The notes: generated by a model from the sequence alone, not told the origin. A stretch of 64,000 nt of DNA from an uncultured Candidatus Peribacteria bacterium (GCA_964495905.1 CAZBWN010000078.1:1566-65565), one strand, 5' to 3'. Positions 8,138-64,000 are shown, numbered from the stretch's first letter. Translations and numbers: made by a program.

Positions 8138-8704
8138 ATGAGAAAGCGTATATGGCTATTTTTGATTGTTGCTTGTATACTTACGCTTATAGGTATACGG
8201 TTTTTTGGTTCTTGATGAAAGCTTTTGACTCCGTCACTTTTATTCTCTCAAGATACTCAAATGAAAATCACTTCTGACTTTATCGACAATGGGCTTCTTC
8301 CTCCTGTGTATACCTGCGATGGGGACGGTCGTTTTCCTACCTTAAAAGTAAAAGATATCCCTGCGGGTGTCAAAACCTTGGCGCTTGTTGTTGATGATCC
8401 TGATGCACCATCCGGCGTGCGAGATCATTTGTTGCTTGCGAATATCCCATTGACGGAAGATCCGTATGTCGTCATTTCACAGGACAGTTTTAATCTCTGA
8501 GTCCTCGGTCAAAATGGTTGGTGAGAACAAGCATGGTGAGCTCCTTGTCCTCCAAGCGGTACGCATAGATATATTTTCAAATTATACGCATTATCACAGA
8601 AACTAGAAATCTCTTCAGGTTTTTCTAAAGAAAGATTGATAGAATTGATGTGAGGAAAGATAGTCGGGCAAACTCAGATTGTAAGTTTATATAAGAGGCA
8701 ATAA
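8138..8704 (+). CDS. YbhB/YbcL-family phosphatidylethanolamine-binding (PEBP) protein with signal/TM anchor
   Basis: TCDGDG...DDPDAPSGV(CGA)DH...NL-G-VLGQNGW-G-EQAW-G-APCPPSGTHRYIFKLYAL with TGA=G. 567 nt in frame with track ORF 8225..8500. Confidence 0.9.
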
Positions 8705-8741
8705 AATATTTTTCATAAAAAAAATAACCCTGAAAACAGGG

Positions 8742-9362
8742 TTAAGTAGGGATACTTTTTAAATATGTGATAACTTCATCGCTTAGACGTTTGAGTTTTG
8801 CTTTGAATGCGGTACTATTGTCAATAACTCGTATGTGACGATGAGGTTTCCATGCTTTTTTTGTTTTTTCATCTACGATTTGTGCTTTTGGAAGATCTTC
8901 ACTTCGTATTTTGTTGGTTTTTGACCCATAAGAAGCTTCTGCTCCAATAGCTGCACTTACAAGATGAAATATTGCATCATATCTTTTTCTGATAGATGTA
9001 ATAGTTAGCTTGTGCTTTTTGAGGATATCTATGAAATCCTTTCGAGAGAGATATGCCATTCCATCCATGATAGCACGATCATGTATGATCAGTATTTTTG
9101 GATACTTATGCTGTTTGGCAATATTGTAAATCATATCCTCTTTGTGTATTTGATCAAGAACGATTTGTTCTTGAAATGTTTTGACACAGATTCCTTTATC
9201 AGAAATTTCAAAACCTGCATTTAAGAGATCTGTTGCTGTTTCTCTACAGATGAATACTTTCCATCCTAATTTTTTTGCTTTTCTTTTTATAGGGTTTACT
9301 CCTAATGTTTTTCCTCCACCGGGACCTCCTGTGAATACAATTCTTTTGATGATCTGTTTCAT
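8742..9362 (-). CDS. P-loop ATPase (AAA_28/NadR-like ATPase family, tentative)
   Basis: Intact track ORF with Walker A FTGGPGGGKT. No in-frame TGA among about 12 Gly codons (hand count). Confidence 0.65.
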   Translation of the reverse strand: MKQIIKRIVFTGGPGGGKTLGVNPIKRKAKKLGWKVFICRETATDLLNAGFEISDKGICVKTFQEQIVLDQIHKEDMIYNIAKQHKYPKILIIHDRAIMDGMAYLSRKDFIDILKKHKLTITSIRKRYDAIFHLVSAAIGAEASYGSKTNKIRSEDLPKAQIVDEKTKKAWKPHRHIRVIDNSTAFKAKLKRLSDEVITYLKSIPT

Positions 9363-9478
9363 ATATTTTTTTTATTTGTTTGTTTTATATTTGGATTTTT
9401 TTTTGTGTATGATAGAGATATATCTAAAAAAGTCAAGAAATGTGTTTCTTGGATTTTTTTTTGATTTTTTTGGCTAAT

Positions 9479-9727
9479 TTATAATACCCAATAATTCACT
9501 ATGCCTCATATTAGGATAAGTGTTATAATTACTGTGTTGATGAACATTCCTATCTGACCTGCTTGTTTGTATCCTTTCCAAGATGAATATAGCCAAAAAG
9601 GTTGTGCTAACAAATTGAGGATTACTCATCGTTGCGGTAATTTCAAAGAAATCGCTGCAAAGCTTATTATCGTAAAAAATGGTAACGCAAATTGTGTTAT
9701 CGTATTTCGCATATTTTTCTGCTTCAT
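9479..9727 (-). CDS. hypothetical small membrane protein (82 aa)
   Basis: ATG 9727..9725, two in-frame TGA. MKQKNMRNTITQFALPFFTIISFAAISLKLPQR-G-VILNLLAQPFWLY...LILI-G-GIVNYWVL. Three hydrophobic segments. 249 nt. Confidence 0.35.
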
Positions 9728-52645: not shown

Positions 52646-53317
52646 TTAGATTCTTGATCATATCGGTAATTCTTTTTTTTCTAATGAGATATCAATCATA
52701 TAAGCTGATTTTTCTCATTGTACAGTACAGATGTTATTATCATAAATAAGTCCTGTTCCTTCTGGTAGACAGATGACGGGAATTTGATAGTATTTTGCAT
52801 AATCTTTTATTTCATTTTCAGATTCTTCGTTATAATGACAAACTATAGAATAATCTTTACAAACATTATATCATAATGTTTCTTCAAAAGATAATTTTAC
52901 TGCATTCATATCTGCTGCTGTATGAATTTCCTTTCCCATGATAATCGCTCCTGCGCTTCATCCGTATATAGGTTTATTATTGTCGATAAATCTTTGAATG
53001 ATGTCTGAAAATCATGTATCTCTGATTAATTTCAAGAGTCTGTAGGTATTTCCTCATCCTATATACATACCATCATAATCATCCAGATGATTTTTATTAT
53101 TTTCTGTAAATTCTTTTTCTGATAATACATCTACTGAATATCATTCACTTATAGGAAATATATTTTGTATCCATTCTAAACATGAAGGATATTCTTCTGG
53201 ACGCATTGCTCGGGGGATATAGAGTATTTTTTTGTTTACTAATAATCATTTATAGAGGGCATCTATTTTTTTGGTGTCAGTGTGGTCTCCTCATCATGAT
53301 ACTACTAGTTTTGTCAT
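52646..53317 (-). CDS. peptidase S51 (dipeptidase E-like) family protein
   Basis: MTKLVVS-GGG-D..., YI-GGG-NTYRLL, IY-GG-SAGAII. 672 nt. Confidence 0.75.
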
Positions 53318-53503: not shown

Positions 53504-53578
53504 GCCAGGGTAGCTCAGTGGTAGAGCAGAGGCCTGAAAAGCCTTGTGTCGACAGTTCAATTCTGTCTCCTGGCACCA
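53504..53578 (+). tRNA. tRNA-Phe (anticodon GAA), CCA encoded
   Basis: GCCAGGGTAGCTCAGTGGTAGAGCAGAGGCCTGAAAAGCCTTGTGTCGACAGTTCAATTCTGTCTCCTGGCACCA. Confidence 0.92.
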
Positions 53579-53670
53579 TCTTATTAAAATAAATTTATTT
53601 ATTTGACTTTTATTATTAAATATGTATACTTTTGATTGATAAAAATTTATTTTTTTAAATGCTATTACAT

Positions 53671-55023
53671 ATGAATAAAGAGAATTTTACTTCTTCAGAA
53701 TGATATAATATGAAAGATGCTATTTCATTGGGTTCGGATGATCAGGCCACTCAAAAAATTTCTGATATTTTATCTGATAGTTCTAAACTTATAAATATTA
53801 ATTGAAATGATAATAAATGGATTGAATATATAAAACAGAAAATGAATGATAAATCTCTTTCTCCAAGAGAAATTTCATATTATAATCGTATCTTGAGGGT
53901 ATTATCAATGCCTGATTTATCTAAACAACCATGACATCCTATAAATTTAGTCATTAATAAAATTCTTTCTGCTCATTTTTTTGAATGATTTGATCATATA
54001 GACGTACCTCAATTTGTTTCTGAATGGGAAACTTTTGATTTATTTAATTTTCCTGAAAATCATGTAGCTAGAAGACCGAGCGATAGTTATTTTGTCAATA
54101 AATCTGAAATCAAAAAAGAAAGCATTCTTCTTAGACCACATACTTCAGTAATGTGGTACCACTATTTGATAGAATGAAAAGCAAAAGAAATCTTGGAAAA
54201 AACTTGAGAAGTAAAAGCATTATCTTTTTGAAAAGTGTATCGTGTAGATGAGCTAGATAAAACTCATCATGAATGTTTTCATCAAATTGATGGATTAAGA
54301 ATAACATCAAAAGAGAAAGAAATCATTAATCAAGATACATTGAAAGAGGTATTATCAAATACGATCAAAGCACTTTTCTGAGAAAATGTAAAGTTTAGAT
54401 TTAACCAAGATCAATTTCCTTATACAACAGATAGTTTGGAGGTTGAGGTTGAATTTGAATGAAAATGGTTGGAGGTTTTATGAGCATGAGTAGTACATCC
54501 TACTGTTTTAGAAAAATTATGATTAGATTCTACCAAATATAATTGATGGGCTTTTGGTTTTGGTATAGATAGATTAGTAATGGCATTGAAAAAAGTACCA
54601 GATATAAGAATTCTTCGGAGTGAAGATAAGAGAATCACTTCTCAATGGTGAAATCTTAATCCATATAAGGAAGTAAGTAATTTTCCTCCTGTTTATAAGG
54701 ATATATCTTTTGTTACTTCTAAGGATAAATTTGTAAAAAATACAGTAGAAATGGAAAAATCATGAAAGATTGAATTGATAAATGAAGCTGATTCATTTGA
54801 TTTGGCTGGTATAGCAAGAGATGTTTCATGATGACTTATAGAAGAAGTTAGGGTAATAGATATTTTTGAAAATGATAAAAAATTTGGTAATGATAAAAAA
54901 TCTGTGTGTGTGAGAATTACCTTTAGATCCTTAGAAAGAACGCTTACTAATGAGGAAATAAATATAGCTTATTTCAAAATAAGAGAAAAATTAGAAAAAG
55001 AACTTAATTATGAATTAAGATAA
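53671..55023 (+). CDS. monomeric, mitochondrial-type phenylalanine--tRNA ligase (class II core fused to FDX-ACB anticodon-binding domain)
   Basis: No ORF in the standard-code track. With TGA=G, a continuous 450 aa: HPINLV, FPENHVARRPSDSYF, LLRPHTSV, F-G-KVYRVDELDKTHHECFHQIDGL, -G-A-G-VVHPTVL, -G-WAFGFGIDRLVM, PDIRIL(CGG)SED. C-terminus FPPVYKDISFV...CVRITFRSLERTLTNEEI = FDX-ACB fold. Confidence 0.85.
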
Positions 55024-55033
55024 TTTAATTCCC

Positions 55034-55062
55034 TTGACATTAATCTCTATTTTAATATAAAT
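55034..55062 (+). promoter_or_regulatory. sigma70-like promoter of the peptide/radical-SAM operon
   Basis: TTGACA (55034..55039), 16-17 nt spacer, TATAAA/ATAAAT (55056..55062), about 50 nt upstream of ATG 55111. Confidence 0.55.
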
Positions 55063-55110
55063 ACTTTGATAGATTAAATCTTTTGTATGTTTTATATTAT
55101 AATATATAAT

Positions 55111-55227
55111 ATGGAAAACAAAGAAATTCAAGTTAAAAATGTTTGTGAAGAAAAGGATGCTAAAGAAAACGTGGTAGAAGATTATTATGAAGCAGAATCT
55201 TGGCAGTTTAGTGGTTGTTGAGATTAA
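55111..55227 (+). CDS. 38-aa candidate precursor peptide (RiPP-like): MENKEIQVKNVCEEKDAKENVVEDYYEAESWQFSGC-G-D
   Basis: Small ORF directly after the promoter and directly upstream of the enzyme genes. Acidic leader-like N-terminus, C-terminal SWQFSGCGD. The penultimate codon is TGA (Gly in code 25), with true stop TAA at 55225..55227. Confidence 0.6.
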
Positions 55228-55231
55228 TAGA

Positions 55232-55260
55232 AATGGGAGGAAAACTCCCATTTTTATTTA
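55232..55260 (+). terminator. hairpin plus T-run after the peptide gene (partial terminator/attenuator)
   Basis: AATGGGAG-gaaaa-CTCCCATT followed by TTTATTT, 14 nt before the next gene. Confidence 0.55.
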
Positions 55261-55273
55261 TTTAAAAATATAA

Positions 55274-55906
55274 ATGATTACATTATCATTTTGAGTAAAT
55301 TTATTATGAATAGAATATTTTAGGTCAAAATTTAATAAGACTTTTGATCTTGATGTATGTTCTGCTGACGCAAAGATAGCATGTAATGAACTCATTTTTT
55401 TATGGGATAGTGTTTCATCTGATATAAATTTTATTATAGAACAATTCTTTTGAGAGATTCATTATGATTTGAAAGTTGAAGTTTATCCAAAATATTTTCT
55501 TTTGTGAGCCATAAATATTGAAAAATGACTTATTGTCCTATGACAACCCAAAAGATCTGATTTTTTTTATTGATGATTGTTGTTACATGAATTAATTCAT
55601 TTTGTCTTGAAAGATAGATGATTAAATAGATTTATTGAGGAAACTATTTGTTTTCTATTTGAAAGAATGTTTATATTGAAATATGATTGAGCAACTATTG
55701 ATGATTTTCAATATGATAAATGAACTGATGATTTTCATACATATGCAATTATGTATTCAAAAGTTTTTTTTGATGATTTTATGCTATTTTATGCGAAATC
55801 TGATATTAATTGATTAATAAATTTTTTGAATAAAAAAATCGATAACTCTAAAAAGGAAATCACTATCGAAAATAATTTAATAGCTTATCTATCAAAAAAT
55901 GCATAA
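55274..55906 (+). CDS. HExxH-motif protein (putative zinc metallopeptidase)
   Basis: 633 nt open with TGA=G. ...DFFY-GG-LLLHELIHFVLKDR-G-LNRFIEE.... No further family recognised. Confidence 0.55.
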
Positions 55907-57206
55907 ATTCTATTTTAAGAAAGATACGTTGATTAGGATAGAACATTTTTGAATTCTATTATTGACTTTGGATTGAAGAAGATTTTCTATTTGAAATGAG
56001 TTTAAACCTATTCTAACTCATATCCATTGATGAAATATTGATTTATTATTAAAGTTTGGTAAAAAAATCTGAGAAACTAAAATTGTAAGGCTTATTGAAG
56101 CATTGGTAGAAAAATGAATATTGATATATTCATTAAAAAAGATTAATTCAAAATTAAGAATTATTGAAAATGATTTTATTTCAAATGATTGTTTAAGTTT
56201 TCCAAGAACTGTTTATTGGGAATTGACACAATCCTGTAATCTTGAATGTATCCATTGTTATTCAAACTCTATGGTAAAATGATTCAAATGATTAGATTTT
56301 GATACAATTAAAAAGACTATTGATGAATTGATAGATAAATGAGTTGAATTCTTAAATATTTGATGATGAGAACCATTGATGTATAAGGATCTCTATAAGA
56401 CATTGGATTATGCAATATCAGGATGACTTGTGATTGAGATGACAACAAATTGAACTTTAATAGGGGAAGAATCGATAAAAAAATTAAAACAAGTCTGAAT
56501 GAAATTCATTCAGATAAGTCTTGATTGATCATGTAAAGAAATTTATGAAAAAATCAGAAAAAAGTCAGATTTTGACAAAGTGATTAATTCAATAAAGTTA
56601 TTGATTGCTTCTTGATTTGTTGTTTCTATCAATACTGTATTGATGAAACATAATAAGGATGATATCATAAATATAATTAAATTATGCAATAGTTTATGAG
56701 TTAGTTATTTCAAGGTTTCTCCATTGATGGAGACATGAAGATGATTTACAAATATGGATAATATCCAATTGAGTTTGATTGAATATAAGAAAATATATAA
56801 AACGTTACTTAAATATAAAAAAGATCATTGATCTGATGCCATCAAAATCATAATATATCAAAATATATTAAAACCTGATGTCAAAAATATAAATTGGATG
56901 CCAAAAGAACATTTTTGATGCCCCGCATGAAGGACTACATGTTGAATAGATCCTTATTGAAATGTATATCCTTGTTCATATATGAATCAAAAAGAATTGT
57001 CTTGTGGTAATATTAAAGAGCAATCATTGTCTGATATATGGTCAAAATCAGAAATAATGGCTAATATCAGAAATATTGATAAAATCTCATGAAAGTGTTC
57101 ACATTGTAAATTCTTGGACTTGTGTAGATGATGATGTAGAGCAATGGCATATTTAAGATATAAAAAAATAGATGCAACTGATCCTTTATGTGTTGTAAAT
57201 TTATAA
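55899..57206 (+). CDS. radical SAM/SPASM enzyme with N-terminal PqqD/RRE-like domain (rSAM-1)
   Basis: ATG overlaps the previous stop (ATGCATAA). TQSCNLECIHCY (CxxxCxxC), NI-GGG-EPLMY, SPASM -G-CPA-G-RTTC-G-IDPY-G-NVYPC ... CGNI ... CSHCKFLDLCR-GG-CRA ... DPLC. By hand count, 29 of 33 Gly codons are TGA. 1308 nt. Confidence 0.85.
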
Positions 57207-57210
57207 AAAT

Positions 57211-58227
57211 ATGAAAATATCTATAGCTACTAATTGGGATGATGATCTAGTTGATTATATATCAAAATCAAACAATGATTGTTTATCAAATAGCATATGT
57301 GAATTTTTTGCGTCAAAAGCGTTTAGTATCTTATGAAGTGCTAATACTGATGTTCCAGATCTATCGCTTCAAGATATAAAGCAAAAAATATCCTATATAA
57401 AAGATAAAAATATCCAATTTAATTACTTGATTAATTCAAGTAAAATGCCTGATTTAAATGATGAGATAATCAGAAAAAAAGTCTTAGATTATTTGTCATG
57501 GATCAATACATTAGGTATTGATATTCTAACAGTGGCTAGTGAGGATCTTTTAGATCTAATCTATAAGAATTTTCCCAATATCCCCATTAATATTTCTGTC
57601 GTATTATGACTAAAAACTATAGAGAAAGCTAATTATTTAAGAGAAAAATATCCAAATATCGTAAGACTAACTTTACATCAAGATATCAATAGGGATAAAA
57701 AATTATTGGAAGAGCATATTAAAAATGCACATAATCATCAGACACTAAAGCCAGTTGAGATAGAATTATTGGCAAATGAGGTATGCTTTATTGGGTGTTG
57801 ATTAATGAAAGATCATTATGATGCATTAACTTCCTTGTCTCAAAAAAAAACATGAAAAGATTTTATGTTTTGATGGTGCTGCGCCAAAAGAAAAGAAAAT
57901 ATTATTGATTTTATCAATTCTAGTTTTATTAGGCCTGAAGATATGATATTATATGAAGATTTATGAGTTGATATCATTAAATTAGCTTGAAGAAAGGAAC
58001 AAACCAATGAATTGAAACTTAGGGCAAAGGCATATTTAGAAGGTTATTATGATTGAAATATTATGGACTTATTTTTAGCAGAATTTTGGCCTATGAAAAA
58101 ACCTCCATATATTTCTAATTCTTCTTTTAACTGATTTGTAAAGTTTTTATGGGGACAAAAATTAATAAAAATTGATAATAAAGAAATATTTCCATGATTC
58201 AAAAATTTAGATTATAATCGGAATTAA
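57211..58227 (+). CDS. hypothetical protein, peptidase-U32-like (tentative)
   Basis: 1017 nt open with TGA=G, containing track fragment 57427..57609. MKISIATNWDDDLVDYI..., IELLANEVCFIGC-G-LMKDHY resembles the U32 Cys-containing motif. Weak, by eye. Confidence 0.4.
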
Positions 58228-58229
58228 TT

Positions 58230-60176
58230 ATGTATTATAAAATTAAAGACAATGTTTTGTGGAGAAATGAGAAAAATAGTTTTATGATACTCCATCCAGT
58301 ATCAAAAAAATTGATGATATTCTGAAAAGATATCTCAGATTTTGTTAGTAAATGATGAATAATTGATGGATTTAAATTAAAAGATAATGTATCTATTAAA
58401 TATTTGATTAAAGAATCAATTGTTGCTGATTATCTGATTGATTTTGATATAAATAATCACATATTTTGATCTGATAATTTTGTTTCGGCTCCTTTAAATG
58501 TGACGATACAGATAACCAACAGGTGTAATCTACAATGCGGACATTGTCATAAGGTTGATAAGTGATGTGTGAATATTGATAAAGATAGACTCATAACCTT
58601 GATTGATGAACTTCATGAAATGAAAGTGTTTAATATAAATATATCATGATGAGAACCATTGATGTATGAGTGATTATCTGATGTTATAAAATATATAGTA
58701 TCCAAATGAATGAAAATTACTATGTCGACAAATCTCGTACTCTGGGATGAAAATATGGCAAATACAATGCATCAATTATGAGTAAGACAATTACATGTTT
58801 CATTAGATTCAAGTGATGAAACATACCATGATCATATGAGATGACATAAAGGCGCTTATTTGACTACTATTAAAAATCTGGCAATCATAAAAAAAGCTGG
58901 TTTAACTTTTACTTTGGTCACTACTTTGGTTAATCAAAGCATTGATGATTATTCAAAGATCATAGATTTATCATATAAATTATGAGCTAGTTGACATAAA
59001 ACTAATATATTAGTCCCACAATGACAATGAAAGTCTATAGAAACTTGATATTATAAAGATTTAAATTTATTTAAATCATATATTCGTGTTTTTCTTCAAA
59101 AAAAGAAAAAATATGATAAAAAAATGTCTGTGATATGAGAAAGCATGTTCATGATAAGTATCTGAGAAAATATGGATAACAAACCCGATATTTTGAAGTT
59201 ATGGTGTCCAGCAGGAGTGTTGACCTGTGCAATAACTGAAAAATGAAATTTGTTGGCATGCCCCTTTTATACCGAGCTTAGTATGTGAAATATATATGAT
59301 GATTCATTTAAAGATTTATGGACAAAAAGCGTATTGCTTTGAAAAATAAGAGTGTGTAAAGAAAATGATGGTAGTTGATGTCAAGCAAGAGCATATTGAA
59401 TATCCAAATCAATTGAAAATAATGATCCATATATTCATAAAAATGTATATGATGCAAACAATCATGATTTCTATAATAATTCAGCAGAAAATAGAAATGA
59501 TTTTATATCGGTAGTCTGACATTGAATAAAGATTGAATGAGAAAAATGAAATAAAGAGTTCTATTGATTGATACATAATTATTTGATGAGTTCAGACCTA
59601 ACATTGGAGATTTGAACCTGAACTTGAATCGTACCGAAGACTTTGGGTTGTCTGTGAAAAAAGATAATTTCCATCGATTTTTCAGATAATATGTTGAAAT
59701 TGGCAAAAGAAAATTGTAGTATGTATGATAACGTCTTATTTATGAAAGAAGATATACATGCATTGACTTTTAGGGATGGTAATTTTGATCTTATCATTAA
59801 AAGGCTTGCTCCGGATGATCTATGAGAAATATTCAGAGTTTTGAAATTCGGTTGAAATTTCATTAATTTTACAAATTGAGAAAGAGATTGAATGGAATTA
59901 AAAGAACTTTTTTGATTTCCTTTCCATCAAAGCGTTTCTGATTATAAATCTCAATTGGTTAAACAATGATTTGAGATGATATATGAAGATGAATTTGAAT
60001 TTAAGGAAATCTATAATGATTTTGATATACTAATTAAAATGTTACATATAGCGCCTATCATACCTGACTTTTTGGATAGAGAGGCATATTATATTGATAA
60101 AATAAAAACTGAATTTGATGACACTAATTGCTTTGTTTTAACTCGTCATAAATATTTGGTAAATGCAAAAAAATAA
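58230..60176 (+). CDS. radical SAM/SPASM-like enzyme with RRE-like N-terminus, fused to a C-terminal class I SAM-dependent methyltransferase (rSAM-2/MT)
   Basis: TNRCNLQCGHCH, IS-GG-EPLMY, CPAGVLTCAITEK-G-NLLACP. Then LTLEI-G-T-G-T-G-IVPKTL (motif I), ISIDFSDNML, GNFDLII, LKF-GG-NFI. Frame continuity between the halves was checked codon by codon across 59331..59642. Same frame as track ORF 59976..60176. 1947 nt. Confidence 0.8.
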
Positions 60177-61200
60177 ACCATTTGATATATTTACATTGCA
60201 ATGGCATATTACAAATAATTGCCAATTAAGATGCACACATTGTTATGTAGATTTTTCAAAATCTTTTTCAATCAGTATGTCTGATTTTCATAAAGCTATG
60301 AATAATTATAAAAGATTCCTTGCATATTATTGAATAACGTGAAAGGTATATTATACTTGATGAGATCCACTTCTTCACCCAAATTTTTGGAATATTATGG
60401 ATGAAACAAAAAAACATTGATTAGAATCGGCTATATTTTGAAATTTCCATTTGTTGAATGATGAAAATATTCAAAAATTATGTGACAATGATATCAAATT
60501 TTATCAATTGAGTATGGAATGACTTAGAGAGACACACGATAACATAAGATGAGAATGAACATTTATCTGAGTAATTGATTCTATTGCTAAATTAGAACAG
60601 AAATGAATATATACTCTAGTTAATATGACATTATCAAAAATGAATATCGATCAGCTTATACCTTTAATTGAATTTTTAGCATATCATACCAATCTTTCAA
60701 GATTTGATTTTGTAAGAATAGTTCCTATTTGAAAAGCATCAAAAAACATTATGCTTTCTGATGCTGAATTGAAATCTATCTTTTTAAAGATATTGGAATT
60801 GGAGAAAAAAATAAAAAAAGATTGAAAAAAAATGGTTATATGAAAAAAAGATCATTTATGGAAATTATTATATTACCAATCAGATAAACTGAATATTAAT
60901 TTGAAAGACCAAACAGCTGGTTGCTGAATGGGATATAGGCACCTTACAGTAATTGAAAATTGAGATATCTATCTCTGTAGGAAACTACCAATTAAAATAT
61001 GAAATATCATTACCGATGATTTAATAGAAATATATGAAAATAATACAATTATTTCAGATGTATTGAATCTAAATTATGTCGTGTGATGCCACTGATGTAA
61101 ATTGGAATATGTGTGTAGATGATGTCCAGCTGTAACCTATTGATTAAATAATAATTTAACAAAAAAAGATCCTCAATGTCGGCAGAATTATTTATATTAA
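60163..61200 (+). CDS. radical SAM/SPASM enzyme (rSAM-3)
   Basis: ATG overlaps the previous gene by 14 nt. TNNCQLRCTHCY, YT-GG-DPLLH, SPASM A-G-C-G-MGYRHLTVIEN-G-DIYLC ... -G-NI ... -G-CH-G-CKLEYVCR-G-CPA ... DPQC. 1038 nt. Confidence 0.85.
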
Positions 61201-61212
61201 TAATGCATAAAT

Positions 61213-62259
61213 ATGTATATGGCAAATATCGTTATATGAGAAACCTATTGTGTCCTTAATTGTGATTATTGTATGTATACAAAAGATATTAGAAAGATTT
61301 TTTCAGAAAAAGAATTATCTACAGTTTCTGGAAATGTATCAAAAATAAAGAAATTTATAGATAATTATGCAAAGAAAATACAGGTCATATCTCTTACATG
61401 ATGAGAACCTACATTGTTCCCTGATATAATAAAGACTTTTTATGATAAATTTGATAATAAGATAATTAGAGTTTGTACCAATGGACTTTTATTAAATAAT
61501 GAATTATTAGATTCATTTTCTCCTGAAAGATTATATTTTGCCGTAACTTTGGATTGAATTGATTTAGAGGATAATTTATTCAGATTTAAATCTCAAGTTA
61601 TGTTGGATAAAATAATCTCTAACATAGATCTTTTGTTGAATAGATGATTCAGTGTTGAAATATTGACGGTTCTGAGTCCTCAAAATATGTTAAAATATAC
61701 TAAATTGATTGAATATTTTGAAAATAAATATCACAAATATATTGAAAACTGAAAAATATGGTTTATACCTATCGAACTAGTGAATTATATGAATTTAGAT
61801 AAATTTAAGATCAGTGATAAAATGAAATCTGATCTTGTGCTTGATCTCATGTCCTGTAAGAAAAAATCAATTATACTGTCAAGACAGAAAGAATATTTTG
61901 ATGAACTAATATCGTATTATTCATGAAATAGCGTCAATACTTGTGGTATGTATAAACGAGCGCTCCATTTAAAATATTTGGGGGATTCTATTCGAACAAA
62001 ATGATCATTTAATCTTTATTGATGCTGAAGCAGATGACATCTGATGATGTGAACAATGAATTTTAATAATTCATTTGATGCTTCTTTTATATTAGAAAGA
62101 AGAGAAACAAAATCAGTAAAATTATATTTTAAAGAATCGGATAGTGCATGTAAAAAATGTTTTGATAATCGACATTATTATTGATTAATATTAAAAAATA
62201 AATTACATAATGTCCCACATATATTAAAAAAAACAATTGATTTATATCATAATAATTAA
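61213..62259 (+). CDS. radical SAM enzyme with Cys-containing C-terminal domain (rSAM-4)
   Basis: YCVLNCDYCMY (CxxxCxxC at residues 12-19), SLT-GG-EPTLF, C-terminal NTCGMYK, Y-G-C-G-SR-G-, CKKC. 1047 nt. Confidence 0.75.
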
Positions 62260-62261
62260 AA

Positions 62262-63041
62262 ATGGAAGAAAAATTCTTGTTGAATAAAATTTGATCAAAC
62301 CCTAATAGACTTTGAGTCTTAATATGTACTCATGGAGATGAAACATTATGATTTAATGTTATGAAGATGATAGAAAATGTTGTAGATGATCTTACTTTTG
62401 TCTTGATGAATAAAAGGGCTTTTGATATATGAAAAAGATATGTTGAATATGATTTGAATAGGTGTTTCTTGTGAAATATATTGGAAAAATGACTTGATTC
62501 TTATGAATACAAATTATCACAAGAACTTCATGAAATACTAACTTGATTTGATAATATCATTGATATACATTCGACAAATTTTGATATAGATCCATATTTT
62601 ATTATAGATACACTCGAAAAAAAGGAATCAATATTGATTAAATCCGCATCTAATGAATTAATCAAAAATTCCTATCTAATACCTCTTTCAAAATGAACCG
62701 TAATCTGACCTTATTTGAATGCGATAGCAATAGAGTCTTGACCTAATAATGATAAGAAGAAAATACATCAAGTTGCAAACATAGTCAAAAATATATCAAA
62801 TAATATTTGATTTAATCATAACAATGAAAAGGAATTGAATGTTTTTTGATGAGAGTTGACAAAGAAAGATGTCTTTAGATTAAGAGAAGATATTAAAGAT
62901 TTTGATCTAATAGCTAAATGAGCAATTTTATGATATAATGAGGAATGAAAAATTGTGATAGCTAATGAAGATATGAAATTGTTTTGGATAAATAATAAAT
63001 TTGAAGATCCGAATGTTCTTGCAATAAAATTAAAAATTTAA
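62262..63041 (+). CDS. succinylglutamate desuccinylase/aspartoacylase (AstE/AspA, M14-like zinc carboxypeptidase) family protein
   Basis: VLICTHGDETL-G-, EYDLNRCFL-G-, IIDIHSTN. 780 nt with TGA=G. Confidence 0.65.
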
Positions 63042-63047
63042 TAAAAA

Positions 63048-63067
63048 ATCACGACCAAAATCGTGAT
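63048..63067. terminator. hairpin between the operon end and a convergent small ORF
   Basis: ATCACGA-ccaaaa-TCGTGAT. A T-run follows on the minus strand (A-run 63042..63047 on plus). Confidence 0.5.
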
Positions 63068-63093
63068 AAATATTACTTATTAACTTAGTTATC

Positions 63094-63255
63094 TTAATTT
63101 TTTGGACCAAACATCCATTTTCGTCTATTCATTGGAGGTATTCTTTTGTCATGTACTAAGATATTAGTAAGATAAATACTGTTTCCTTTATATCTAATTA
63201 TATTGTATTTATGATTTTTTGCAAATTTTGTCTTAGATATTAATCTTTTTGTCAT
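63094..63255 (-). CDS. hypothetical small basic protein (53 aa)
   Basis: ATG 63255, MTKRLISKTKFAKNHKYNIIRYKGNSIYLTNILVHDKRIPPMNRRKWMFGPKN, TAA 63096..63094. Below the track length cut-off. No family recognised. Confidence 0.3.
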   Translation of the reverse strand: MTKRLISKTKFAKNHKYNIIRYKGNSIYLTNILVHDKRIPPMNRRKWMFGPKN

Positions 63256-63377
63256 ACCCCTTAATTAGTGTACGAAAATGTCTGAATTTCGGCTTGAATT
63301 CTATATATAAATGTATATATACAACACACCCCTGTTTATACAGGTTATTTTTTTGTCTTTATACTGTTGAAATATAT

Positions 63378-63448
63378 TGGGGAATCGTCTAACGGTAGGA
63401 CAGCGGACTTTGACTCCGTCAGTCTAGGTTCGAATCCTAGTTCCCCAA
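63378..63448 (+). tRNA. tRNA-Gln (anticodon TTG)
   Basis: TGGGGAATCGTCTAACGGTAGGACAGCGGACTTTGACTCCGTCAGTCTAGGTTCGAATCCTAGTTCCCCAA. U1-A72, loop CU-UUG-AC. Confidence 0.85.
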
Positions 63449-63487
63449 GACTGATTAACTTCATGGCCCAATATAATGAAAGGACAT

Positions 63488-63562
63488 TGCGGGATAGAGA
63501 AACGGTATCTCGTTGGGCTCATAACCCGAAGACAGGTGGTTCGACTCCATCTCCCGCAACCA
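63488..63562 (+). tRNA. initiator tRNA-fMet (anticodon CAT), CCA encoded
   Basis: TGCGGGATAGAGAAACGGTATCTCGTTGGGCTCATAACCCGAAGACAGGTGGTTCGACTCCATCTCCCGCAACCA. GGG/CCC at the base of the anticodon stem and the ...CCCGCAACCA 3' end are typical of initiators. Confidence 0.8.
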
Positions 63563-63595
63563 AAAGAATATGTAAATTTGATATACTAGTACTGA

Positions 63596-63668
63596 TCGGG
63601 AGTAGCTTAGCTGGTAGAGCGTCTGACTCTGAATCAGGAGGTCCTAGGTTCGAATCCTAGCTCCCGAG
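63596..63668 (+). tRNA. tRNA-Gln (anticodon CTG)
   Basis: TCGGGAGTAGCTTAGCTGGTAGAGCGTCTGACTCTGAATCAGGAGGTCCTAGGTTCGAATCCTAGCTCCCGAG. U1-A72, G73, loop CU-CUG-AA. Confidence 0.8.
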
Positions 63669-63679
63669 AATGCATCCGT

Positions 63680-63735
63680 GCCGGGGTGATAAATTGAAGA
63701 ATAGACATGTCCGCCTAGGCGGATGCCATAAACAG
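63680..63735 (+). pseudogene. tRNA-Leu-derived 5' fragment whose anticodon arm is replaced by the GTCCGCCTAGGCGGAT palindrome
   Basis: GCCGGGGTGAT (identical to the first 11 nt of the tRNA-Leu at 63768), D-arm-like ...AATAGACAT, palindrome, then GCCATAAACAG. No T-arm or 3' acceptor. Confidence 0.6.
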
Positions 63736-63767
63736 TTAGTGAAAAAATTTAATAAAATTGTGTTCAT

Positions 63768-63848
63768 GCCGGGGTGATGGAATGGTAGACATGCTTGGCT
63801 TAGAACCAAGTGCCATACGGTGTGCAGGTTCGAGTCCTGTCCCCGGTA
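63768..63848 (+). tRNA. tRNA-Leu (anticodon TAG)
   Basis: GCCGGGGTGATGGAATGGTAGACATGCTTGGCTTAGAACCAAGTGCCATACGGTGTGCAGGTTCGAGTCCTGTCCCCGGTA. Long variable arm. Confidence 0.88.
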
Positions 63849-63928
63849 GTTGATTGTAGATTGAATGATAGACATGTCCGCCTAGGCGGATGCCACACGG
63901 TGTTCAGAATAACTCCCTGTCCCCGGTA
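63849..63928 (+). pseudogene. tRNA-Leu-derived 3' fragment with the same palindrome in place of the anticodon arm and a degenerate T-arm
   Basis: ...GATTGAATGATAGACAT-GTCCGCCTAGGCGGAT-GCCACACGGTGTT-CAGAATAACTCCCTG-TCCCCGGTA. Variable arm and 3' acceptor match the tRNA-Leu at 63768. The 5' acceptor is missing. Confidence 0.6.
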
Positions 63929-64000
63929 AATACATTCTTTGTACTAAAGTATCATTTTATGTTGAAAATGATATCTAGATTCTTATAGGTTAGTACATTG

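Follow-up and report, generated by a model that had tools for sequence, protein, structure and literature searches.

Has a genome-reduced bacterium exchanged the usual alpha2-beta2 phenylalanyl-tRNA synthetase (PheRS) for a single-chain enzyme of the mitochondrial type, and, if it has not, what is the single-chain enzyme for? The question is raised by a gene at positions 53671-55023 (+) of a 64,000-nucleotide stretch of DNA from an uncultured Candidatus Peribacteria bacterium (GCA_964495905.1 CAZBWN010000078.1:1566-65565), which we call the window. The original prediction, made from the bare sequence, held that this gene encodes a PheRS built like mitochondrial FARS2, that it serves instead of the PheS/PheT heterotetramer, and that it is of interest for the origin of the mitochondrial enzyme. 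We found that only the first of these claims holds. The best explanation of the locus as a whole, which we put forward tentatively and with less than even confidence, is that the gene was acquired horizontally from another bacterium that reads TGA as glycine, together with the radical S-adenosylmethionine (SAM) operon that follows it. With similar reserve, we propose that its product may be a catalytically competent second PheRS that is tied to this operon more than to general translation.

A single-chain PheRS of the FARS2 type

Under translation table 25, in which TGA stands for glycine, positions 53671-55023 (+) form one intact open reading frame (ORF) of 450 amino acids with 17 in-frame TGA codons, and it carries all of the class II motifs that had been quoted for it. 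Under table 11, no ORF of at least 60 amino acids overlaps these positions on the plus strand. Translation could also start from an ATG at 53659, which would make the protein 4 residues longer. Both of the expected domains were matched in the recoded protein, namely the class II PheRS catalytic core at residues 84-325 (53920..54645, +; Pfam PF01409 tRNA-synt_2d, 200 bits, E 7e-59) and the ferredoxin-fold anticodon-binding (FDX-ACB) domain at residues about 337-450 (54679..55020, +; PF03147, 79 bits, E 5e-22), the best stretch of the latter match being residues 378-450. The PDB sequence and fold comparisons agree with Pfam. By sequence, chains of human mitochondrial PheRS are the best PDB matches (E about 4e-41), and bacterial PheS alpha chains match the core region only. 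Similarly, an AlphaFold (AF2) model built on 43 homologues (pLDDT 90.1, pTM 0.86) gave a predicted fold whose top Foldseek matches were human mitochondrial PheRS (3CMQ, 5MGH; TM 0.67/0.74 over about 437 columns), with bacterial alpha subunits covering the core only (TMq about 0.46). These results confirm that the window protein is a single-chain FARS2-type PheRS, with a class II core and an FDX-ACB domain in one polypeptide. It resembles FARS2 (PDB 3CMQ, 3TUP) in having this domain at the C-terminus and in the residues that are kept, but its N-terminus is extended by about 80 residues.

The curated family models do not claim this protein. All of its NCBIfam scores lie under the respective cut-offs, with 239 bits against 300 for SrmL (NF051887, "PheS-related mystery ligase"), 199 against 258 for TIGR00469 (pheS_mito) and 170 against 237 for TIGR00468 (pheS), and several relatives outside the recoded clade described below do exceed the cut-off of TIGR00469. 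We rejected an identity as canonical PheS alpha on the basis of the TIGR00468 score, the fused FDX-ACB domain and a position outside the canonical PheS clade.

The active site looks ordinary. The core residues H157-T158-S159, R191 of motif 2, Q205/D207, F249-P250-Y251, G271-A272-G273, the specificity residue Ala294 and R301 of motif 3 are all present. Compared with textbook PheS, there are two changes, Asp for the Glu that follows the Gln (D207) and Tyr for the second Phe (Y251). Both variants are common to candidate phyla radiation (CPR) enzymes that are the sole PheRS of their genome, and for this reason we do not take them as a sign of a changed substrate. In human mitochondrial PheRS, Asp364, Phe366, Ser375 and Arg414 read G34 of tRNA-Phe (PMC7540514); these residues align with D397, F399, S411 and R450 of the window protein and are kept across its clade. 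We infer that the enzyme would charge tRNA-Phe and that its role would be tied to the operon.

One codon merits separate mention. Codon 316 is CGG (54616..54618, +) and falls in the motif DIR-x-F-W-S, at a nearly invariant column that is Trp in about 90% or more of the 43 homologues aligned. We read residue 316 as probably W rather than R because of a CGA/CGG=Trp recoding that is reported for this organism. The presence of CGG at this codon, together with Arg-for-Trp replacements, supports such a recoding in these genomes. Relatives translated with Arg likewise show R at conserved Trp positions; for instance, locus L048 has KRLEV for KWLEV and NGRAFG for NGWAFG.

A canonical PheS/PheT in the same genome

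As the original prediction stated, no pheT follows the single-chain gene; in fact, the window holds no pheT-like gene, and a full match to pheT occurs on one other contig only. The prediction had also suggested a genome search for pheS and pheT as a check on the proposed replacement, and this search found both genes intact. PheS (339 amino acids, C58:1547-2566) scores 244 bits against a cut-off of 237 (TIGR00468), and PheT (853 amino acids, C50:22754-25315) scores 529 bits against a cut-off of 403 (TIGR00472). The housekeeping PheRS of this cell is the canonical PheS/PheT encoded elsewhere, and the single-chain gene is a second copy.

It could be argued that the single-chain enzyme is nevertheless the only PheRS of the organism and that the contigs with pheS and pheT are contaminants, given that these genes lie on other contigs of a metagenome-assembled genome (MAG) that is 89% complete with 4.8% estimated contamination. 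We regard this as very improbable, and contamination was ruled out on three grounds. Both genes contain in-frame TGA codons and are intact under TGA=Gly only; their TGA share of Gly codons (3/23 in pheS and 13/66 in pheT) and their GC content (0.37-0.38) are typical of the genome; and G173, a genome of the same genus, has the same pheT without the single-chain gene. The contig of the window, C78, is not a duplicate or contaminant either, as paralogues in other parts of the bin exist for only 4 of its 66 ORFs, and it is the single-chain gene that is the compositional outlier.

The distribution of the two enzyme types was surveyed in 121 sampled genomes of the class, in which full-length single-chain homologues occur in just two other families. 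Canonical PheS is the only type in the ten further genomes of the family (95-99% complete), one of which belongs to the same genus, and the search of these ten found no full-length single-chain homologue. Canonical pheS and pheT elsewhere in the genome are what the prediction itself had named as its refutation, and the idea of a streamlined sole PheRS fails for this genome; of the two enzymes, the single-chain one is foreign. Furthermore, a full pheT above the cut-off is present in all 8 of the TGA-recoded carriers of the accessory gene that were tested (G000, G260, G264-G267, G548 and G549). When a recoded CPR genome contains a FARS2-like PheRS, it does not follow that the two-subunit enzyme has been lost.

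Sole and accessory single-chain enzymes

A sole single-chain PheRS does exist, in other, standard-code CPR families. In eight standard-code genomes that are 94-100% complete (G092, G015, G114, G068, G006, G135, G143 and G154), the single-chain gene (43-50% identity) is the only strong PheS-type match. All that is left of pheT in them is an OB-fold gene of about 130-170 amino acids, which in five genomes adjoins the single-chain gene, and a search of five standard-code genomes for the B3_4 editing domain found it in none. In G092, the OB-fold gene lies 5 nt upstream (L010 1034-2571); it is also seen in G015, G114, G068 and G135, and its product in standard-code CPR matches PheT positions about 38-156. 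Enzymes of this kind (e.g. those of L010-L016 and L022) are 41-47% identical to the window protein over its residues about 72-450, and they share with it one active-site pattern (FHQxDG, FPY, WAFGFG) and one clade of 37 rows. However, their genomes lack pheS, pheT and B3_4 and have the OB-fold partner, whereas the gene in the window is accessory and has no such partner.

We placed these sequences in an IQ-TREE phylogeny that comprised 92 sequences and was rooted with canonical PheS. Every form with a core plus FDX-ACB falls into one group (99, quick tree). The window protein falls in a clade of 20 rows made up of TGA-recoded sequences (100/100), which is nested in the clade of 37 rows (96/95) to which SrmL and the single-chain enzymes of standard-code CPR also belong. 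The other major clade contains the sequences from eukaryotes, along with several prokaryotic forms some 350 amino acids long. The window protein therefore does not group with eukaryotic FARS2, and the relevance to FARS2 origin that had been suggested for it is lost: the bacterial branch is not the closest FARS2 relative among the sampled sequences, which limits its use for mitochondrial-origin arguments. Besides its clade and its score under the TIGR00469 cut-off, the window protein differs from FARS2 in its bacterial origin, in its TGA recoding and in that it exists alongside PheS/PheT as a second copy.

Single-chain PheRS leads two lives in Patescibacteria, one as a sole, proofreading-free enzyme in some standard-code lineages, and another as a mobile accessory gene in TGA-recoded Gracilibacteria/Absconditabacteria, where it heads biosynthetic-type operons. 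The architecture is already known from mitochondria, and so are duplicate aminoacyl-tRNA synthetase (aaRS) genes borne by biosynthetic clusters. What is new is the combination, that is, an island-borne accessory clade of FARS2-like enzymes that is TGA-recoded, scores below every curated cut-off and is a constant companion of an undescribed peptide operon with radical SAM enzymes. A literature search returned no relevant paper on bacterial single-chain PheRS, on SrmL, or on FDX-ACB domains with radical SAM enzymes.

SrmL raises the possibility that the window protein is a PheS-derived ligase that acylates a peptide or small molecule rather than a tRNA. SrmL is its best NCBIfam model, the two have a core plus FDX-ACB-like architecture in common, and they belong to the same well-supported larger clade. 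We nevertheless consider such a function improbable. Apart from the score, which misses the SrmL cut-off, true SrmL proteins have an altered pocket (HPY, LECG, LAMG) and have lost the Asp/Phe/Ser/Arg set that reads G34, whereas the window protein keeps all of these. Seven long-branch sequences in the tree, with 376-447 bits, are genuine SrmL, and membership in this family was rejected on score, residues and the separate clade that SrmL forms. SrmL genes are found in neighbourhoods with radical SAM, AsnB-like and NUDIX genes. The SrmL gene of L053 is divergent from a set of radical SAM, NUDIX and AsnB-like genes, and the genuine SrmL genes of L054 (4759-8403) and L055 are on phage-like contigs (T5orf172, many small unknown ORFs), beside other aaRS-like genes (tRNA-synt_2 and a faint ArgRS-like match).

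An acquired island with an extra tRNA-Phe

The single-chain gene belongs to a low-GC, TGA-rich island of roughly 9.5 kb (53579..63376), with tRNA-Phe at its left and a tRNA array at its right. The island genes (53659-63041) have a mean GC of 0.256 and a third-position GC (GC3) of 0.18, and TGA makes up 156 of their 186 Gly codons (84%), compared with a GC of 0.355 and 27% TGA in the rest of the contig and 0.358 and 29.5% on the other contigs. For the PheRS gene alone, the GC is 0.276 and TGA accounts for 17 of 23 Gly codons. The DNA is host-like on both sides, on the right from 63.4 kb, where the array of 11 tRNA genes lies. The donor of the island must also have read TGA as Gly.

A chimeric assembly was ruled out by an independent contig that spans the island and by a depth equal to that of the flanks. 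In the public run that is probably behind the assembly, this contig extends from 53550 to beyond 64000 at a depth of 23.9, with 21.9-22.9 for the left flank, and the only break is inside the repeated tRNA-Phe. Given that one contig spans the island at flank depth, the island and its flanks belong to the same organism. The public runs that contain the stretch are groundwater DNA only, with no RNA runs among them.

The tRNA-Phe(GAA) gene at the left border (53504..53578, +; ARAGORN) is separated by a 92-nt gap from the ATG of the PheRS gene, as had been described. The genome has two tRNA-Phe(GAA) genes, the other being part of an Ile-Phe-Pro cluster on C16, and the two are identical (75/75), which rules out a divergent tRNA-Phe dedicated to the single-chain enzyme. 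Since G173 has one tRNA-Phe only, in an Ile-Phe-Pro cluster syntenic with that of C16, it is the copy in the window that is surplus. This copy has about 20 nt in common with the native 3′ flank of the C16 cluster, and it may once have been part of the right-border array. Classical tRNA-targeted integration was rejected, as no second 3′ half of tRNA-Phe was found in the window, the far end of the island included, and no integrase was seen.

Some further features of the borders can be added. The array at the right border (window 63377-64000 and C78 64942-66723) reads Gln, Met, Gln, Leu, Asn, Thr, Asp, Glu, Val, Met, Gly. To the left of tRNA-Phe, an S51 (PepE-like) peptidase gene (52646-53317, -) has an intermediate composition (GC 0.297, TGA in 10 of 19 Gly codons) and may belong to the acquired DNA. 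Between tRNA-Phe and the PheRS gene, a promoter-like site, TTGACT-16 nt-TATACT (53603..53630, +), scored 10/12 in a consensus scan; it is weak, and such sites are no more numerous than in shuffled sequence.

A peptide gene and a radical-SAM operon behind the PheRS gene

About 90 nt after the PheRS stop codon, there is a precursor-peptide gene of 38 codons (55111..55227, +), whose product ends ...YYEAESWQFSGCGD and in which TGA encodes the last residue but one, a Gly. PheRS-type genes in L042/L043, L046, L048 and G260 are also followed by this tail, (D/E)YYEAES(W/R)QFSGCGD, which makes five independent loci. A degenerate DNA pattern of the tail matched 3 of 401 genomes of the class, each time directly downstream of a PheRS-type gene, and its reversed control gave no matches; the motif was not found in 11 genomes of the same genus. 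At the peptide loci with enough flanking DNA, a PheRS-type gene is always directly upstream, at a spacing of 47-90 nt. A contig search with the single protein returned only 4 loci.

The peptide gene is followed by a co-directional operon of seven genes (55274..63041, +). According to domain annotation, these encode, in order, an HExxH protein (210 amino acids), a radical SAM/SPASM protein (435), a U32-like protein (338), a fusion of radical SAM/SPASM and methyltransferase (648), a second radical SAM/SPASM protein without fusion (345), a radical SAM protein (348) and an AstE/AspA-like protein (259). L048 shows synteny in gene order and L042 a similar arrangement, and in L046 the HExxH protein and the first maturase form a single fusion protein. 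One Phe of the core peptide is invariant, and deacylase- or carboxypeptidase-type genes accompany the PheRS gene, AstE/AspA here and S66 in relatives. Between the peptide gene and the operon, the sequence can be read as a hairpin with a 5-bp stem and a 5-nt loop, followed by a T-run (55235..55259, +), for which a terminator scan made no call.

This arrangement bears on the simplest account of the gene, according to which it is a redundant, housekeeping-type PheRS that spread by horizontal gene transfer and whose position before the operon is meaningless, perhaps as an early stage of the replacement of pheST that other CPR lineages have completed. The standard active site, the lineages that live on the single-chain type alone and the several unrelated contexts in which orthologues occur would all agree with such hitch-hiking. 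Yet a PheRS-type gene precedes the peptide gene, at short spacing, at every locus where this can be seen; the PheRS gene shares the extreme composition of the island; and pheT has been lost in none of the eight carrier genomes, while the distribution within the family is patchy. We thus hold mere redundancy to be rather improbable. The strict pairing of synthetase, peptide and cluster is itself useful, as it offers a handle on the chemistry or the target of the system, in which PheRS would be the target of the product or Phe-tRNA a substrate.

Possible roles in immunity or biosynthetic supply

Second synthetases with the specificity of the housekeeping one have been described in or near the clusters for tiarin/trifolitoxin, indolmycin and valanimycin (the SerRS VlmL), and the same holds here, where a duplicate of the housekeeping enzyme with the same specificity stands next to a biosynthetic cluster. 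In tiarin clusters, which produce peptides synthesized ribosomally and modified post-translationally (RiPPs), each cluster-encoded aaRS has a housekeeping duplicate elsewhere (10.64898/2025.12.02.691738). The authors of that preprint proposed that the cluster-encoded enzymes are resistant immunity variants, and they reported that a resistant target enzyme protects (10.64898/2025.12.02.691738). They also formulated a rule by which the residue that precedes a conserved Gln in the precursor matches the aaRS (10.64898/2025.12.02.691738). The operon in the window is not a tiarin-type cluster, as it has no TfxB/TfxC FMN-dependent dehydrogenases and the residue before the conserved Gln is W/R, not Phe. 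In contrast to tiarin, the maturases are radical SAM enzymes and the extra synthetase is of another quaternary type than the housekeeping one.

By analogy with these systems, we tentatively favour a role in immunity, which we consider possible rather than probable. The Phe-containing modified peptide made by the operon, or a fragment of it, would inhibit the alpha2-beta2 PheRS of competitors, of hosts or of the producer itself, and the structurally different single-chain enzyme would keep the synthesis of Phe-tRNA(Phe) running in the producer. Such a role would parallel that of the extra aaRS genes of other RiPP clusters that target synthetases, it needs no missing component, and it fits the invariant Phe and the deacylase-type genes. 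Several observations weigh against it. No exporter is encoded in the island, which speaks for an intracellular, cofactor-like product more than for an antibiotic. An extra copy of tRNA-Phe would not be needed for immunity, and with orthologues in type-B and aromatic (L062) contexts and in one without an obvious cluster (L063), immunity to this one peptide cannot be the sole role of the gene. The biosynthetic-looking neighbourhoods of SrmL also hint at a biosynthetic rather than a protective role.

This last possibility can be formulated as one of supply, in which the PheRS and the extra tRNA-Phe would make Phe-tRNA(Phe) or Phe-AMP for consumption by the pathway. For example, Phe could be added to the invariant tail of a scaffold peptide, tailored by the radical SAM enzymes and then released by a peptidase. 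VlmL and the tRNA-dependent pathways with PEARLs and scaffold peptides offer analogies. A tRNA-Phe identical to that of the host lies immediately upstream of the gene, and in L042, too, a tRNA-Phe, the sole tRNA-Phe match in that genome, is directly upstream of the PheRS-type gene. The missing exporter, the several peptidase-like genes and the invariant tail are as one would expect of scaffold or cofactor pathways; SrmL and the type-B operons have AsnB-like, NUDIX and radical SAM genes beside them; and the L062 orthologue, which lies amid chorismate genes, ties the enzyme to Phe flux. However, we found nothing in the operon that can be recognised as an aminoacyl-tRNA transferase (of the LanB/PEARL, Fem, CDPS or L/F-transferase kind), there is no tRNA-Phe upstream of the PheRS-type gene in L046 or L048, and the housekeeping PheRS could provide Phe-tRNA anyway. 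Supply is thus doubtful on its own, although immunity, the role we favour, is only slightly more likely, and the two are nearly on a par.

A bolder version of supply would be a self-contained, tRNA-dependent system for peptide tailoring, in which a dedicated PheRS with a tRNA-Phe copy of its own would bring Phe to the invariant scaffold tail through a transferase unrelated to those of the PEARL/LanB type, and the radical SAM enzymes and peptidases would turn it into a small molecule derived from Phe. We judge this to be unlikely. If true, it would be a new aminoacyl-tRNA route in natural-product synthesis, and one that is found in a genome-reduced CPR bacterium.

Other contexts of the orthologues

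In addition to the peptide operon, orthologues head a second type of operon, which we call type B and which was found in L040/L047, L049 and L064 (L047 11303-17626; L049 11224-19976; L064 10468-16715). It encodes a protein of 634-644 amino acids, together with S66 peptidase-like, AsnB-like (PP-loop) and MurA-like proteins and a MurB-like/NUDIX fusion. We considered the 644-residue protein as a remnant of the beta subunit, which is unproven, as a sub-threshold B5 match is all that speaks for it; it has no PDB sequence match.

In L062 (1-13526), the orthologue lies between the genes for chorismate synthase and chorismate mutase/prephenate dehydratase. This locus comes from another Gracilibacteria MAG, and a complete-looking shikimate and Phe/Tyr operon surrounds the gene, which is unusual in CPR. 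The orthologue of L063 has no obvious cluster nearby. In L048, a canonical pheS (8668-9693, -) lies directly upstream of the accessory gene, in divergent orientation. Finally, in several genomes of the class and phylum, PheS-type matches fall within open frames of 1150-1195 amino acids (G082:C1:61799-62608, G058:C15, G055:C2, G090:C5 and G234:C7), which suggests that these are PheS-PheT fusion proteins.

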